Shown here one piece after another: positions 413 to 21,724 of a DNA stretch of 25,177 nucleotides. The stretch lies in IMG/VR virus record IMGVR_UViG_3300032279_000322, positions 1 through 25,177 of that record. The stretch is one strand, 5' to 3'. The notes beneath the pieces were generated by a model. That model did no database searches. It saw only the letters and a program-made list of their open reading frames with translations, and was not told the DNA's origin. The DNA is from a virus (lineage: Duplodnaviria; Caudoviricetes). Made by a program: the position numbers and the translations under genes. Within the stretch, counting starts at the first letter, position 1. Each line of letters begins with the position of its first letter.

Positions 413-613
413 ATGGAATCAACAAAAAGAACACTAATGAAGACAGCAAGTTGGGAAACATTTCACCTTGTTGGAGTTGCTGGAGTTATCTATCTTTTTA
501 CTGGTGAATGGGAGTATGCCTCATTAGGTGCACTTCTTTACATTGGATGGGAAGCACTTGGATACTTTATTCATGAAAGAGTATGGGCAAAATTTGGCAA
601 GGGGGTAAAGTAA
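413..613 (+). CDS. DUF2061-family small membrane protein (copy 1)
   Basis: ES.KRTL.KT.SW ... Y.IHERVW.K signature with hydrophobic middle. Confidence 0.8.
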   Translation: MESTKRTLMKTASWETFHLVGVAGVIYLFTGEWEYASLGALLYIGWEALGYFIHERVWAKFGKGVK

Positions 614-717: not shown

Positions 718-1440
718 GTGTTTACCACTACTGATATTGTTTTTAATTCTGTACCAAGATCTGGTAATAACTTTTTAGCACAGTGTATCGATAGTGCACT
801 GACTAAAAATATTAGTCATGAAAAGAATTTAAAAAAATTACCAAATAAAACACTTGTTTTAAGTCACAATAAAGCATTTATTGTTCATCCATTTTTTCAT
901 ATACCATCTATGTTAAAGTTAGAACAGTCTGACCGTCTTATTCAGTTTACAAATGTAAGAACTCCAATGGATGTTATTAAGTCTTATTGCTTTACTGCAC
1001 TCTCTAATGCAGAAAATGAAGAAACAATAGAAAATGTGGTAAACGGAGAACATTATAATTTTAAAGGAATTATCAAAAGCATAATTGACGATTATTTTGC
1101 TTATTTAACTATACAAATACAAAATAAAAATGCTTTTGTAATTGAGTTTGATAAATTAATTAATGATCCCGACAGTATAATTAGTTTTATTTTATCAAAG
1201 ATGGATCTAAAATATGAAAACAAAGTTTCAGCAGAAGAAACATTGAGTGTAATTAAAAATAGAGATCATAACAATTTTGGCAGCCTACCAAATCAGTTAG
1301 TTGCAAAGATGAGGCATCACGGTCCTCACGATATTCAAAAAACAAAACTATATGAAAATCTAACTGAACAAATAGAAAATGAAGAAAATTTTTCAGAATT
1401 AAAAACACTTTATCTTGAGGTATCTAATGCCAGTATATGA
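718..1440 (+). CDS. Sulfotransferase-like P-loop protein (paralog 1)
   Basis: 5'-PSB loop NSVPRSGNNFL, 3'-PB motif VRTPMDVIKS, IEFDKL. Confidence 0.75.
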   Translation: MFTTTDIVFNSVPRSGNNFLAQCIDSALTKNISHEKNLKKLPNKTLVLSHNKAFIVHPFFHIPSMLKLEQSDRLIQFTNVRTPMDVIKSYCFTALSNAENEETIENVVNGEHYNFKGIIKSIIDDYFAYLTIQIQNKNAFVIEFDKLINDPDSIISFILSKMDLKYENKVSAEETLSVIKNRDHNNFGSLPNQLVAKMRHHGPHDIQKTKLYENLTEQIENEENFSELKTLYLEVSNASI

Positions 1441-4969: not shown

Positions 4970-5179
4970 ATGTGGTCATGGATATTAGCAGTAATAGGTA
5001 TTTGTGGAATTTTTTTAGTTGGCCAAAAAACAATATGGGGCTGGCTAATTTTATGCGTTAATGAAGTATTATGGATCGCCTATGGGCTATCTACCAAACA
5101 GTATGGCTTCATCGCCATGGCTATTGCTTATGCTACAATATACATAAGATCTTACATACATTGGAGAAAAGAAGTATGA
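4970..5179 (+). CDS. Small 3-TM membrane protein (PnuC half / SemiSWEET-like)
   Basis: Three hydrophobic segments, K.IWGW...N..LW..YG...QYG...Y..W; ATGA overlap with the kinase gene. Confidence 0.55.
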   Translation: MWSWILAVIGICGIFLVGQKTIWGWLILCVNEVLWIAYGLSTKQYGFIAMAIAYATIYIRSYIHWRKEV

Positions 5180-5943
5180 TTATTCAGTTTATTGGCCTAC
5201 CAGGCTCAGGCAAGACAACAATTGCAGATGCAGTTAGAGAAAGAACAAACGGAATACATGTTAATGCTGATCAAGTAAGGGCTGGCTTAAATAAAGATTT
5301 AGGTTTTAGCCCAGAAGATAGAATTGAACAGGCACGAAGAATGGGAGAACTTGCTAGACTTCTTGAAAAGATTCAAGATAAGCCAGTTATTGTTGATTTT
5401 GTTTGTCCAACAAAAGAAACCCGTGAGGCTTTTGGTGAGGCAGATGTTGTTGTATGGATGGACACCATTCAAGAAGGTCGTTTTGAAGATACAAATAAAT
5501 TGTGGGAAGATCCAGAACACTATGACCATAGGATAGTTAATACTGGTGATGATTATGAAGATTCAATTCCAACAAGAGCAATTACAGTTATTCGTAAATT
5601 TGGAATGTTTGATTGGAAAGAAAATACAGTTCTTTTATTAGGTCGTTATCAACCGTGGCATGAAGGGCATAGAGCGTTGTATGATGAGGCTGCAAAGCGC
5701 AATACGCAAGTTGTAATTGGTGTAAGACATACCGTTGGAATGTCAGAAAAAGACCCTCTTCACTTCGAACAAGTTCGTGACTATATTCATCAAGATATGC
5801 CTGCAGCAAATGTAATCAAAGTTCCTAACATTACTAACATTGTCTATGGTCGTGATGTAGGATACAAGATTGAACAAGTAGATTTGGGAGCAGACATTCA
5901 TGCTATTTCTGCTACGCAAAAACGTAAAGAGATGGGCATATAA
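5176..5943 (+). CDS. cysC: Adenylylsulfate (APS) kinase fused to a C-terminal HxGH nucleotidyltransferase (PAPS-synthase-like)
   Basis: GLPGSGKTT; ADQVRAGLNKDLGFSPEDRIEQARRMGELA (CysC signature); C-domain GRYQPWHEGH, YGRD, ISAT..R; start 5176 by ATGA overlap. Confidence 0.88.
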   Translation: MIIQFIGLPGSGKTTIADAVRERTNGIHVNADQVRAGLNKDLGFSPEDRIEQARRMGELARLLEKIQDKPVIVDFVCPTKETREAFGEADVVVWMDTIQEGRFEDTNKLWEDPEHYDHRIVNTGDDYEDSIPTRAITVIRKFGMFDWKENTVLLLGRYQPWHEGHRALYDEAAKRNTQVVIGVRHTVGMSEKDPLHFEQVRDYIHQDMPAANVIKVPNITNIVYGRDVGYKIEQVDLGADIHAISATQKRKEMGI

Positions 5944-6045
5944 ATGGTAGTAAACATTATCGCTATTGTAGTTTCTTTAATGGTTGCTGGATTTATGGTT
6001 TATTTTATTAGTAAGTATGGTGGCGAAATAGATGAACGTAAGTAA
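5944..6045 (+). CDS. Small single-TM protein (33 aa)
   Basis: MVVNIIAIVVSLMVAGFMVYFISKYGGEIDERK fills the gap after the kinase gene; not in the ORF track. Confidence 0.55.
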   Translation: MVVNIIAIVVSLMVAGFMVYFISKYGGEIDERK

Positions 6046-6235
6046 ACAAAGATCAGCATTAAAATCAATTACTTGGCGTATCATTGGTACAGCAGATACT
6101 TTTGTAATATCTTGGGCAATAACCAAAGAGCCAGTTACGGCTGGTGCAATCGCAAGTTTCGAGGTATTTACAAAGACAATCCTTTATTACTTCCATGAGC
6201 GTGGTTGGAATAAAGTTAAATGGGGTAGAAAGTAA
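6032..6235 (+). CDS. DUF2061-family small membrane protein (copy 2)
   Basis: RS.LKSITWRIIGT.DT....KT.LYYFHER.W. Confidence 0.9.
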   Translation: MNVSKQRSALKSITWRIIGTADTFVISWAITKEPVTAGAIASFEVFTKTILYYFHERGWNKVKWGRK

Positions 6236-6471: not shown

Positions 6472-6854
6472 TTTTTGATTATATTGTTTTTACTATGTTT
6501 ATTTCCATTTTTATTTTTTTAATTTTCCAATTGTTTATAACAAGGTTTGCATTAACAAAAACAAGAAGTGAACTTGTTCAATCAAATCTAAACAATACTA
6601 TTGTTCTCGATAAAATTCAAATTGAAAACAGCAAGTCTTTTTTAAACTTTGTTGAAGGTTCAAGACAAGATGCATTTAAATACATCGAAGAGGTTCAAAG
6701 TGGTCTAAACAAGTTTATTAAAGATATTGAGCCAGAAATTAAATATTTTAAAGAATATGGAGACTTGACATCGATGTCGCCAAACTACTACTCTATGAAG
6801 AAAATTACTGATTCCTATGATCAGTTGAAGCAACTACTACCAAAGGAAGACTAA
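6468..6854 (+). CDS. Hypothetical membrane-anchored, coiled-coil-like protein
   Basis: N-terminal TM; GGAGG RBS; overlapping junctions. Confidence 0.7.
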   Translation: MIFDYIVFTMFISIFIFLIFQLFITRFALTKTRSELVQSNLNNTIVLDKIQIENSKSFLNFVEGSRQDAFKYIEEVQSGLNKFIKDIEPEIKYFKEYGDLTSMSPNYYSMKKITDSYDQLKQLLPKED

Positions 6855-7012
6855 TGAAAGAAATTATTTTATCAATACTAACAGGTTTTGGGTGCGGTGT
6901 CGTGTTCGCAGCATTCAAATTGCCAGTGCCAGCACCACCAGTTTTTGCGGGACTCGCAGGAATTATTGGTATTTGGCTTGGGGCAACAATACTAACACAA
7001 ATTATATCCTAG
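6854..7012 (+). CDS. XapX-domain (DUF1427-like) small membrane protein, 52 aa
   Basis: MKEIILSILTGFGCGVVFAAFKLPVPAPPVFAGLAGIIGIWLG: LPxPAPP between two TM helices; not in the ORF track. Confidence 0.8.
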   Translation: MKEIILSILTGFGCGVVFAAFKLPVPAPPVFAGLAGIIGIWLGATILTQIIS

Positions 7013-11015: not shown

Positions 11016-11044
11016 ATGCCCTCCGTTAAAAGTATATCATGTTG

Positions 11045-11117
11045 TACCCCTGGCAAGAATCGAACTTGCGACGCATGGCTTAGAAGTCCATCGTTCTGTC
11101 CACTGAACTACAGAGGT
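11045..11117 (-). tRNA. tRNA-Arg(TCT)
   Basis: Acceptor ACCTCTG/CAGGGGT, anticodon loop CTTCTAA, GTTCGATTC T-arm. Confidence 0.9.
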
Positions 11118-11128
11118 CTAGTAGGCGG

Positions 11129-11199
11129 CTCCCAGACATGGATTCGAACCACGATTAAGGGCTTCAAAGGCCCCTGTCCTGCCGTTAGACGATCTAGGA
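11129..11199 (-). tRNA. tRNA-Gln(TTG)
   Basis: Acceptor TCCTAGA/TCTGGGA, loop CTTTGAA, GGTTCGAATCC. Confidence 0.92.
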
Positions 11200-11208
11200 A
11201 TGATATTG

Positions 11209-11281
11209 TATCTCCAACGGGATTCGAACCCGTGTTGCCACCGTGAAAGGGTGGAGTCCTAGGCCACTAGACCATGGAGAC
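11209..11281 (-). tRNA. tRNA-Glu(TTC)
   Basis: Acceptor GTCTCCA/TGGAGAT, loop CTTTCAC, GGTTCGAATCC. Confidence 0.93.
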
Positions 11282-11282
11282 T

Positions 11283-11356
11283 TGGAGCGGATGATGAGAA
11301 TCGAACTCACCCCTTCTGCTTGGAAGGCAGAGGCACTACCAATATGCAACATCCGC
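11283..11356 (-). tRNA. tRNA-Gly(TCC), CCA encoded
   Basis: Acceptor GCGGATG/CATCCGC, loop CTTCCAA, 3' TCCA. Confidence 0.93.
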
Positions 11357-11360
11357 ATCG

Positions 11361-11435
11361 TACACCAGGTAGGACTTGAACCTACGAATAGCCGAATTAT
11401 GAGTTCGGTGCCTTAACCAACTTGGCTACTGGTGC
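11361..11435 (-). tRNA. tRNA with CAT anticodon (elongator Met or Ile2)
   Basis: Acceptor GCACCAG/CTGGTGT, CCGAA-CTCATAA-TTCGG; lacks the initiator GGG/CCC anticodon stem. Confidence 0.88.
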
Positions 11436-11637: not shown

Positions 11638-12201
11638 TTAAAGTATAATCTTTTTCTCAATTAGTTCATTATATGTTTTATTAATCTTATATAAATCTAT
11701 ATTATTTAAAAGAATATTTCTTATTTTTTCATAACTTTCAACTTCTCGTGCAGATGCAAAAAAGACATTTGGGATTGGATCAATCTTTACAATATCTATA
11801 TTATTTAATTCAACACTATTATTTTTTGCTAAATAACTAAACAGTTCTTCAGGTTTTAAAATCAAATCGTTAAAATCAAATATGCTTACATAACTATTTT
11901 GACTAATTAAGTTATAAAAATTTTCAAGTAAGTCTATGCGTCTCATTAGCCTATATTCAATTCTATTTGTATTTTTTATATTTTTCATTATTTCTAGTGT
12001 TACTTGAGAAGATATTACATCAACTGGATTTCTAATTATTGAAATATGAAATAAATCTTTATTGTTTAAAAGTTTTTCAATACTGTTATTTATTGCATAT
12101 GAAGTGATAAGTTTATTTGCAAACAATATTCTAGAATTTTTTATAAAAAATGTTGTTCCAGATCTTGGATAACAACTTAGATGAATTTGTTTTGCTGTCA
12201 T
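11638..12201 (-). CDS. Sulfotransferase-like protein (paralog 2)
   Basis: SCYPRSGTTFF, IIRNPVDVISS, FDFNDL. Confidence 0.78.
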   Translation of the reverse strand: MTAKQIHLSCYPRSGTTFFIKNSRILFANKLITSYAINNSIEKLLNNKDLFHISIIRNPVDVISSQVTLEIMKNIKNTNRIEYRLMRRIDLLENFYNLISQNSYVSIFDFNDLILKPEELFSYLAKNNSVELNNIDIVKIDPIPNVFFASAREVESYEKIRNILLNNIDLYKINKTYNELIEKKIIL

Positions 12202-13578: not shown

Positions 13579-14103
13579 TTAAATTATAACATACTTGTAT
13601 TTTAAAGCATCTAAATATGCCTCATTAGCCTCTGTGAATATGTCTGTATTTTGCATGGCATATTGGTGTAGTGGTGTATATGATGGATGATCCTTTACAG
13701 AACTTCTTAAATTAATTGGGTATACAACATCCAGATTTTTGGGGTATACAATATCGCCATCAAAATCTACTATACTACGAAATACCCCTACAGGATTAGA
13801 AATTAGATCATTAAAGTCGTATACAGCAATTTTGGATAGATCGTATTTGTTTATATGATCTACATAAAATTTAGATGCTCCAACTAGGGTAGGATGATAT
13901 TCTTTCTCAACAAGTTGTGTTTTGGTCGTAGCATGATTATGTATTATTCCAGACACTACCGCATCAATTGGATTTCTAAGCACAATGATGCATTTTTCAT
14001 GTGAAAGTCCATATGTTGAATCTTTTTTTATTTCAATATAATCTCTTAGATTTTCTAATAAAAAATTAGATCCAGATCTAGGATGAGACACTACATAGTG
14101 CAC
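13579..14103 (-). CDS. Sulfotransferase-like protein (paralog 3)
   Basis: VSHPRSGSNFL, VLRNPIDAVVS, YDFNDL; GAGGAG RBS before GTG. Confidence 0.78.
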   Translation of the reverse strand: MHYVVSHPRSGSNFLLENLRDYIEIKKDSTYGLSHEKCIIVLRNPIDAVVSGIIHNHATTKTQLVEKEYHPTLVGASKFYVDHINKYDLSKIAVYDFNDLISNPVGVFRSIVDFDGDIVYPKNLDVVYPINLRSSVKDHPSYTPLHQYAMQNTDIFTEANEAYLDALKYKYVII

Positions 14104-15285: not shown

Positions 15286-15603
15286 ATGAATGAAGCAATC
15301 CTATATATCATTTATAGTCCTACACACAAGGCTATTAAGATAGGCATATCAGATATATCAGGTAAGAGGTTTGCCACACATAGGAATAAAGGGTGGAAAT
15401 TGGTTTGTTATTGGCATTTTTTTGAGCGGGATAAGGCAAGAAGAGTAGAATCCCTAGTAATACAAACACTAAGAAAGAAGTATGAGCCATTCCTTAGTAA
15501 GGAAGACATGCCACAAAATGGTTATACTGAAACATTCTCATCCAAGCAAATCAAAAAAAAATCACTGATTCGATTAGTAAATAAAACTATTAAAACTTTA
15601 TAG
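15286..15603 (+). CDS. GIY-YIG-superfamily (T5orf172/MUG113-like) nuclease
   Basis: LYII....AIKIGIS...RF..H...W.L...E..V...L...GYTETF; TATAAT-6nt-ATG at 15286. Confidence 0.75.
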   Translation: MNEAILYIIYSPTHKAIKIGISDISGKRFATHRNKGWKLVCYWHFFERDKARRVESLVIQTLRKKYEPFLSKEDMPQNGYTETFSSKQIKKKSLIRLVNKTIKTL

Positions 15604-16126
15604 TTTTTAAAAGTGCCTCTTCGTATAAAGCGTTTGCTTCATCAAAAATACTAGAGTGTTCTACTGCAAAGTTATAAAGATTTTCGTAATCTTTGTGGTT
15701 TTTTAGAGATCCGTGAAGTGATCCTCCTGAGTCAACCAATGTTTCATTGGTAAGGTGTATGCCTACCATTGCTGATATTACTTGATGAGTCTTAGAGATT
15801 AAATCATTAAAGTCAAACTTAAGAACTTCATCAATAGAGCATGCAGGTACATGTTTTGAATACCTTGCAGCAGATTGTATTAAACCATATTCGTTTATCT
15901 GAAGTTCTTCTTTTCTATTTTCAACCCCATGTATAATTGATGAAACAATAGCATCTATTGGCTTTCTAAGAACTAAGATATATGTATTTTCAAATTTTTT
16001 TTCTAAAAAGTCTTTATTCCAAATATGGGTATATGGATGTTTGTCTATTGTAATATCTGAAAACTTTCTTACATTATCAATTATAAAGTTTGATCCAGAT
16101 CTTGGTTGTGAAATTATTAAATGCAT
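15590..16126 (-). CDS. Sulfotransferase-like protein (paralog 4, closest to paralog 3)
   Basis: ISQPRSGSNFI, VLRKPIDAIVS, FDFNDLIS, IF.EAN..Y..AL; AAGGAG RBS. Confidence 0.78.
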   Translation of the reverse strand: MHLIISQPRSGSNFIIDNVRKFSDITIDKHPYTHIWNKDFLEKKFENTYILVLRKPIDAIVSSIIHGVENRKEELQINEYGLIQSAARYSKHVPACSIDEVLKFDFNDLISKTHQVISAMVGIHLTNETLVDSGGSLHGSLKNHKDYENLYNFAVEHSSIFDEANALYEEALLKTIKF

Positions 16127-21603: not shown

Positions 21604-21650
21604 GCCGACGTCCCGAATTTTTATGCATTTGATTGCATATTTATTTATTG

Positions 21651-21724
21651 CGATTCCAACGGGACTTGAACCCGTAGCCTCTACCGTGACAGGGTAGCGA
21701 TCTAACCAATTGATCTATGGAACC
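21651..21724 (-). tRNA. tRNA-Asp(GTC)
   Basis: Acceptor GGTTCCA/TGGAATC, CTACC-CTGTCAC-GGTAG, GGTTCAAGTCC. Confidence 0.93.

Follow-up and report, generated by a model that had tools for sequence, protein, structure and literature searches.

Two families of ATP sulfurylase, Sat and CysD, serve to score sulfur pathways in genomes. Proteins that join an APS kinase to a HUP-fold nucleotidyltransferase with an HxxH motif include human PAPSS1 (1x6v) and the Sat-CysC fusions of Aquifex (2gks) and Penicillium (1i2d), and the requirement for HxxH has been confirmed in PAPSS (PMC11697783). The phage protein described here likewise pairs these two kinds of domain; it has the domain order of human PAPSS1, its kinase aligns to 1x6v at Z 16.7, and the same product is predicted. 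However, it is 255 aa long compared with 546–630 aa for PAPSS and Sat-CysC, its kinase lid is shortened, and its second domain of about 110 aa (hereafter the mini-HUP) is NadM-like and lacks both a PUA domain and the QXRN motif. Sat itself (PF01747) has the HUP fold in common with the mini-HUP (T. thermophilus 1v47: Z 8.0, rmsd 3.5, 111 residues aligned), with the HxxH, GR(D) and S-x-T-x-x-R motifs in corresponding positions, and the A. vinosum gene holds a slot upstream of aprMBA as mini-HUP genes do; the mini-HUP differs in having no Sat profile match, GRxQ for QXRN, about one-third of the length and a predicted strand-swapped dimer. The NMN adenylyltransferases of the NadM type (M. jannaschii 1f9a; Francisella 2qjt) share the GRxQPxHxGH and (N/D)PF motifs, whereas the mini-HUP has lost a helix between strands 3 and 4, carries an invariant Arg after strand 2 and is found in a sulfur rather than an NAD context.

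In viruses the family is catalogued as PHROG 10255 ('kinase') and probably corresponds to the auxiliary metabolic gene known as cysC. Freshwater phage cysC genes have been reported and are transcribed, and in the accounts of them the product figures as a single-domain kinase that contributes to assimilatory sulfate reduction by the host, with no second domain mentioned in the relevant passages (PMC10914622; 10.1101/2021.01.05.425418). A description of the phage fusion or of a NadM-like sulfurylase was not found in searches of open-access text. We propose, with a probability of roughly 0.7, that the 255-aa gene product is a minimal PAPS synthase whose sulfurylase half represents a third family of ATP sulfurylases.

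The window analysed, 25,177 nucleotides in length, is the whole of a 25-kb virus record of a lake phage, and its relevant features are collected in Table 1. The preliminary description had placed a 255-aa frame there, with a CysC-type N-terminal domain and a small motif-bearing C-terminal domain. All of the motifs it named are present in that frame (GRYQPWHEGH, residues 156–165; IVYGRD, 222–227; ISATQKR, 244–250), as is a Walker A motif (GLPGSGKT, 7–14), and limits drawn from structure assign residues 1–144 to the kinase and approximately 148–255 to the HUP domain. The fusion's ATG and the stop codon of the preceding 69-aa ORF share a 4-nt overlap (ATGA). A longer start at 5071 was considered and ruled out; most full-length relatives are 250–259 aa and align from residue 1, so 5176 is taken as the true start. 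In a profile search, residues 1–254 match positions 2–229 of the 230 in PHROG 10255 (E 4e-60), and because this family, PF01583 and thousands of relatives all match, the frame is not a chance one.

Table 1. Features of the 25,177-nt window that bear on the fusion gene and its surroundings.
Feature	Position	Strand	Basis
Fusion gene, 255 aa: lid-shortened APS kinase and mini HUP nucleotidyltransferase; candidate minimal PAPS synthase	5176..5943	+	PHROG 10255
APS-kinase-type domain, residues 1–144; K13, D32, R35, F44, R49 kept; short lid	5176..5607	+	structure, alignment
Mini HUP domain, residues 148–255; GRxQPxHxGH, R184, PN, YGR, SATxxR; NadM-like; candidate ATP sulfurylase	5617..5940	+	structure, alignment
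DUF2061 small membrane protein, conserved partner	6032..6235	+	profile match
Second DUF2061 gene	413..613	+	profile match
Sulfotransferase, likely PAPS consumer	13579..14103	-	PF00685 over cut-off
Sulfotransferase-like	15590..16126	-	PF13469 E 1e-3, under cut-off; PRSGS motif
Sulfotransferase-like	11638..12201	-	PF00685 E 0.013, weak; PRSGT and RNP motifs
Sulfotransferase-like	718..1440	+	motif and alignment, without a Pfam sulfotransferase match
PnuC-like membrane ORF, 69 aa, variable neighbour	4970..5179	+	PF04973 E 7e-5, under cut-off; overlaps fusion start

The fusion family is large: 6992 of 8000 scored candidates are relatives at E≤1e-10, and at this threshold there are 823 clusters at 50% identity. 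Twelve of the 19 matching records from cultured phages cover at least 80% of the fusion, namely eleven of 55–57 kb phages (e.g. Sano, Salvo) and DLP6. Among the best 150 representatives, many of which are fragments, 87 have the N-C architecture, 53 the kinase only, 7 the HUP only and 3 the reversed C-N order (e.g. P0153), although one of these three rows resembles an assembly artefact. In P0155 the partner of the mini-HUP is a canonical CysC of full length, which scores above the NCBIfam apsK equivalog cut-off (233.6 versus 138.7 bits). The association of the mini-HUP with APS kinases thus takes several forms (N-C, C-N, canonical CysC fusion and, in cells, split gene pairs).

The kinase half scores 59.8 bits against PF01583 (APS_kinase), above the family cut-off of 21.1, and the AlphaFold model, made from 67 rows with the kinase half included, reached a pLDDT of 95.6. 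Among the matches listed by Foldseek for the whole-protein model, all were APS kinase structures. A wide fold search placed APS kinases in all top five positions (Z 16.2–18.5, rmsd 1.6–2.2), versus Z 10.3 for an NR kinase. In M. tuberculosis CysC, Lys456 of the P-loop, Asp480, Arg483, Phe492 and Arg497 are described as binding ATP, ribose, adenine and phosphosulfate (PMC4373884). Judged by motif position their counterparts are K13, D32, R35, F44 and R49, conserved in 54/54, 51/54, 54/54, 52/54 and 53/54 diverse rows, respectively; the P-loop, the DGD-type Asp and the APS-binding Arg/Phe/Arg are all present. The fusion falls below the apsK equivalog cut-off (60.8 versus 138.7 bits). Its lid is approximately 19 residues shorter than that of the canonical CysC in P0155 and is not the full lid of about 30 residues (RDxKGLY...FTG); the best structural match, 4rfv, has a disordered lid. 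We regard the N-terminal domain as a lid-shortened APS kinase that is predicted to be active.

The shortened lid could also mean that the C-terminal domain is an ATP sulfurylase with APS as its sole product, the N-terminal domain being inactive and serving, through binding of APS or PAPS, in regulation or channelling. In fungal Sat the APS-kinase-like domain is non-catalytic, and Penicillium 1i2d is among the kinase matches. Lid closure is described as essential in M. tuberculosis CysC (PMC4373884), and the equivalents of its Arg559, Lys562 and Phe576 are uncertain here because two alignments disagree on the register of the lid. However, the Walker A Lys is invariant, and D32, R35, F44 and R49 are nearly so. 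Moreover, a short kinase without the mini-HUP is clustered with a sulfotransferase in RSL1, short kinases lie beside cysQ (PAP/PAPS phosphatase) in 18 loci, and sulfotransferases require PAPS, not APS. We consider an inactive kinase unlikely.

Because the kinase dominated the whole-protein fold searches, the C-terminal domain was folded and searched alone. Its only sequence matches are NadM-type NMN adenylyltransferases (best E 6e-10), in agreement with the suggestion in the preliminary description that GRYQPWHxGH is closer to NadM, and the ESM Atlas contained only 'cytidyltransferase' clusters for it. The NadM profiles cover just its first 75–80 residues, and it scores far under the family cut-offs (24.1 versus 127 and 27.7 versus 397 bits). 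The domain folded with a pLDDT of 91.6, and this monomer model, in which the swapped strand discussed below is missing, matched NadM at Z 9.5, PPAT at 9.4, Sat 1v47 at 8.0 and other Sat structures at 5.4–6.3. Phosphonate and choline-phosphate enzymes were also matched, and together with the NMN and phosphopantetheine enzymes they span Z 7–9.5. Comparison of a structure model with Sat and NadM had been put forward as a way to choose between them, but fold alone did not separate the two.

The preliminary description had also pointed to Sat-type motifs and to a stripped-down bifunctional enzyme; descent of the domain from a stripped-down Sat was rejected. PF01747 is absent among the Pfam matches at E≤0.01, NCBIfam Sat-CysC fusions match only through residues 2–86 (best 25 of 27), and the 255 residues contain no PF14306 PUA-like domain and have no room for one, whereas a true Sat control shows PF14306. 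The Gln and Arg of the Sat motif QXRNxxHxxH are reported to bind sulfate (PMC3779200). QXRN is absent here; GRYQPWHEGH stands in its place, with G156, R157 and Q159 invariant in 61/61 family rows, and of that Sat motif HxxH alone is shared. The GRD motif, which in Sat follows the fourth strand, is present in this protein, but its last residue is not fixed across the family (D in 34/61 rows, G in 23/61) and the invariant core of the loop is Y-G-R. The SGTxxR-type motif appears as SATQKR (245–250), with S245 and R250 invariant in 61/61; since NadM carries a like motif, the match does not discriminate. With QXRN absent and the D of GRD variable, the motif argument for Sat is therefore weaker than it had appeared.

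Two further properties set the mini-HUP apart. R184, after strand 2, is invariant in 61/61 rows, and no helix is seen between residues 216 and 239 in either model, corresponding to deletion of the NadM helix between strands 3 and 4 (102 residues align with 1f9a over 134). In NadM this helix holds the Trp that stacks on nicotinamide. Residues 217–238 are left without a partner in the monomer model, and two copies of the domain model as a strand-swapped dimer in which strand 217–224 of one pairs with strand 151–154 of the other. The dimer scored 0.78 compared with 0.00 for the best of three controls, with runs agreeing in at least 97% of contacts and a pLDDT of at least 87; the mark is reached by 20 of 30 proteins solved as one-chain pairs and by 1 of 23 single chains, a rough guide here as our own alignment was used. 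The modelling supports a strand-swapped homodimer of the mini-HUP, which would be expected to form in solution. The missing NMN-side helix together with R184 would suit a small oxyanion acceptor, and the predicted sulfate site would comprise R184, R226 and the space of the missing helix.

The substrate of the mini-HUP is best judged from the place of its relatives in bacterial sulfur pathways. Across 201 sampled SAR11-family genomes we found the mini-HUP in 135 (a 136th match, E 5e-4, was dropped as weak), aprA in 119, Sat in 8, cysD in 8 and nadD in 181. The mini-HUP accompanies aprA, being present in 114 of the 119 aprA-positive genomes versus 21 of the 82 aprA-negative ones; 5 genomes have aprA only and 61 have neither. 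Split by assembly size, the counts for both, aprA only, HUP only and neither are 79/5/4/19 above 1.0 Mb and 35/0/17/42 for smaller assemblies. The tallies include two unpublished genomes, G155 and G055, and without G155 the first count becomes 113/118. Because the genomes are incomplete and related, the counts are not independent events and p-values are overstated. In 37 of the 114 genomes the mini-HUP lies no more than 7 kb upstream of aprA, always on the same strand, and in 32 of these 37 it sits at the spacing expected for aprM-aprB-aprA, the usual slot of sat; the order HUP-aprM-aprB-aprA, with no kinase, was read in three loci. In Allochromatium (A. vinosum) it is sat that occupies the place upstream of aprMBA (PMC3779200). 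Sat is found in just 5 of the 119 aprA-positive SAR11-family genomes; of the 8 Sat-positive genomes 7 also carry the mini-HUP, which occurs in none of the 8 genomes that bear cysD. P. ubique has been described as lacking cysDNCHIJ and sat, though aprBA is present (PMC5069961), and in a survey from 2026 that covers 135 Pelagibacter genomes, aprA-aprB are placed under sulfite oxidation and the passages concerned do not mention a sulfurylase (10.64898/2026.04.03.716430).

Among the five genomes with aprA but no mini-HUP, G194 also has cysD, and in its slot upstream of aprM there is a HIT-family gene (L211:4269-4664, minus strand; PF01230, E 2e-18). HIT enzymes include APS-cleaving members, and the slot upstream of aprM may be kept for APS turnover.

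The mini-HUP also occurs in an assimilatory setting. In a separate alphaproteobacterial order (that of genome G002), the mini-HUP and cysI are present in 8/8 genomes, and in 7/8 they share one contig and strand, about 1.5 kb apart. The order cysG-cysI-cysH-DUF2061-kinase-HUP was read in three loci (L089, L096, L210). CysD was found in 0/8 of these genomes and Sat in 0/6 tested; because an assimilatory operon needs a sulfurylase, the mini-HUP is a candidate for that role. The strongest argument for the sulfurylase reading is that two pathways, one oxidative and one assimilatory, lack the same step and in each the mini-HUP stands at that point. Since the mini-HUP holds the sulfurylase slot where sat and cysD were not found, it is probably a previously unrecognised kind of ATP sulfurylase. 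In this respect the minimal bifunctional PAPS synthase of the preliminary description is the best-supported reading, carried by gene context, but the route from Sat by which it was reached is not.

The observations that count against a minimal PAPS synthase include the missing sulfate ligands of Sat, the short lid, the co-occurrence with Sat and the 21 genomes with a mini-HUP but no aprA. Some of these would fit a true APS kinase acting on host APS, joined to a HUP domain that adenylylates or cytidylylates another small sulfur-linked phospho- or sulfo-compound rather than sulfate. HUP folds act on many acceptors, as the NMN, phosphopantetheine, phosphonate and choline-phosphate enzymes among the matches illustrate; Sat's QXRN is absent, and Sat can co-occur with the mini-HUP. 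Yet in both the oxidative (aprMBA) and the assimilatory (cysIH) setting, in which neither sat nor cysD was found, the mini-HUP fills the sulfurylase position, and its presence excludes cysD; no other activity known to us would suit the two settings alike. A different acceptor seems quite unlikely to us.

Sulfur genes were also met in a wider sample of cellular loci. The best 80 loci from at least 600 matches in bacterial genomes comprise 35 fused genes, 38 split kinase and HUP genes, 5 with the HUP only and 2 that are ambiguous. Flanking neighbours include aprAB in 5, cysI-cysH in 2, cysQ in 18 and a sulfotransferase in 11; any of the four occurs in 36/80 and none in 44/80, as raw counts. These counts rest on cluster representatives, 189 further ORFs and a local sulfotransferase search of all ORFs, and the 18 loci with cysQ, most of which also have xsc, belong to a single clade. 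A quick tree distributes the sulfur contexts over several separate subclades, but its support is weak, with values of ≥95 on 15 of 81 branches. Three contigs in bacterial MAGs (L085, L086, L094) have a phage-type fusion, DUF2061 and phage-like neighbours, and the tree places L085 and L086 among the phage copies; all three are probably phage contigs that were binned with cells.

The likeness to NadM and the ORF that overlaps the fusion start could be combined into a scheme of NAD salvage with NadR-like logic, as the preliminary description had allowed: a PnuC-like importer of nicotinamide riboside (NR), phosphorylation of NR by the N-terminal domain and NMN adenylylation by the C-terminal domain, whose best profile and structure matches are indeed NadM. 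One cellular locus fits this scheme (L100, with the fusion directly after nadB-nadC), the only one of the 80 with NAD genes alongside. The overlap and the PnuC likeness of the upstream gene were both confirmed, although the likeness is below the family cut-off and extends over the first 68 of 175 PnuC positions only; the best PHROG match is 2421 (unknown function), and the ORF could be a stand-alone three-helix half-transporter. It is not, however, a conserved partner: a PnuC-like gene immediately precedes the fusion in 6 of 76 viral loci with sufficient flank and in none of the 80 cellular loci, and it occurs at any position in 16 of 80 viral loci. The kinase half fits APS kinases far better than an NR kinase, and the NadM profiles stop at residue 75–80 of the C-terminal domain, with the segment after strand 3 deleted. 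Presence of nadD is independent of the mini-HUP in the SAR11 family (120/135 with it versus 61/66 without, p 0.62). Ten of the 32 genomes with the mini-HUP upstream of aprM had no nadD match; 29 of these 32 are assemblies of ≤1.0 Mb, and missing nadD tracks small assemblies (17/94 versus 3/107). Phage DLP6 has the fusion and, elsewhere, its own NadM-Nudix gene beside NAMPT. In the closest relative at 90% completeness, a scan of 73 of its 105 ORFs found no NAMPT. With its transporter variable and its NadM role provided separately in DLP6, NAD salvage is very improbable.

If the fusion is a PAPS synthase, its product should meet a demand within the phage. The window carries WhiB (PF02467), pointing to an actinobacterial host; whiB is used as a marker of freshwater actinophages (PMC10914622). 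The closest relative, with 98% identity in the fusion protein, is a 99.6-kb record estimated to be 90% complete, with portal, capsid and tape-measure genes. In addition to the four sulfotransferase-like genes of the window, one of them over the Pfam cut-off (Table 1), such genes were found in 7/7 relatives that are at least 90% complete using our own profiles, and in 4/7 at Pfam E≤1e-3. Local profiles were used because PF03567, with 6 found over 26 phage records, is too insensitive for divergent sulfotransferases; they were partly built from the loci of related phages. When profiles of the window-type sulfotransferases were compared with that of one bacterial sulfotransferase, the alignment was confined to the PAPS loop, 19 columns long (57%). 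One complete relative chosen by its portal gene has a sulfotransferase-like gene (E 1e-10). Five long records were picked by the portal gene and the fusion was present in two; of the three negatives two were read, and both are without the whole syntenic region. The sulfotransferase-like gene of Sano, two genes upstream of the fusion, matches 13 records of which 11 bear the fusion (one clade); the local order in Sano is sulfotransferase-like, NADAR, fusion (L001:6957-8726). DLP6 likewise has both fusion and sulfotransferase.

In the proposed mechanism, the C-terminal HUP domain would have arisen from the NadM-type nucleotidyltransferase lineage and would act as a strand-swapped dimer, catalysing ATP + sulfate → APS + PPi as a third family beside Sat and CysD. 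The N-terminal domain would then phosphorylate APS to PAPS, thereby pulling the unfavourable first step, and the PAPS would feed the phage's own sulfotransferases rather than host sulfur assimilation. Because the mini-HUP is probably an ATP sulfurylase and is fused to an APS kinase, the phage likely makes PAPS itself. Isolates of the Nanopelagicales are described as being without complete assimilatory sulfate reduction (PMC12817590), and should such a cell be the host, which is hypothetical, the phage would need both sulfate-activation steps. 2OG-Fe(II) oxygenases are encoded near the fusion in the window; where bacterial operons encode PAPS synthetases, it has been proposed that collagen-like or tail-collar proteins are first hydroxylated and then sulfated (PMC2938197). 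Four lake RNA runs contained just 6–10% of the sampled words.

Taken jointly, we think it rather likely that a mini-HUP of 110–130 residues, derived from NadM by helix loss and strand swapping, is a third, non-orthologous ATP sulfurylase: that it is the enzyme thought to be missing after AprBA in SAR11, that it completes assimilatory reduction in a streamlined alphaproteobacterial order, and that, fused to a short kinase, it gives thousands of phages a PAPS supply of their own for sulfation. If so, a third family now hidden under 'cytidyltransferase' labels would change sulfur-pathway calls for the most abundant marine bacteria, and SAR11 cells could finish the oxidation of sulfite to sulfate with a gain of ATP. 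The common viral 'cysC' would then count as an entire PAPS synthase that supplies the sulfotransferases of the phage, and a 255-aa PAPS synthase would be on offer for enzymatic sulfation.

Several neighbouring genes deserve mention. DUF2061 follows the fusion within 1.7 kb in 78/80 viral loci and, in the cys operons of bacteria, separates cysH from the gene for the kinase. In P0133, P0258 and P0269 a DUF4118 membrane domain precedes the short kinase, with or without the mini-HUP, possibly in parallel to the DUF2061 partner. A 33-aa single-helix membrane ORF (5944–6045) lies between the fusion and DUF2061 in the window and overlaps the DUF2061 start. The lid-short APS kinase of RSL1 (L003:7989-16348) is found among DNA-modification genes, being followed by a TET-associated glycosyltransferase (Pfam), two similarly annotated genes, the sulfotransferase, a 5-hmdU DNA kinase helical domain and thymidylate synthase; the region resembles a cluster for DNA hypermodification, in which sulfate may be among the groups added. 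Elsewhere in the window there are a small XapX-domain membrane protein at 6854–7012 (TIGR03510, over cut-off) and, on the minus strand, five consecutive tRNA genes (Arg, Gln, Glu, Gly, Met) at 11044–11435 and a tRNA-Asp at 21650–21724.
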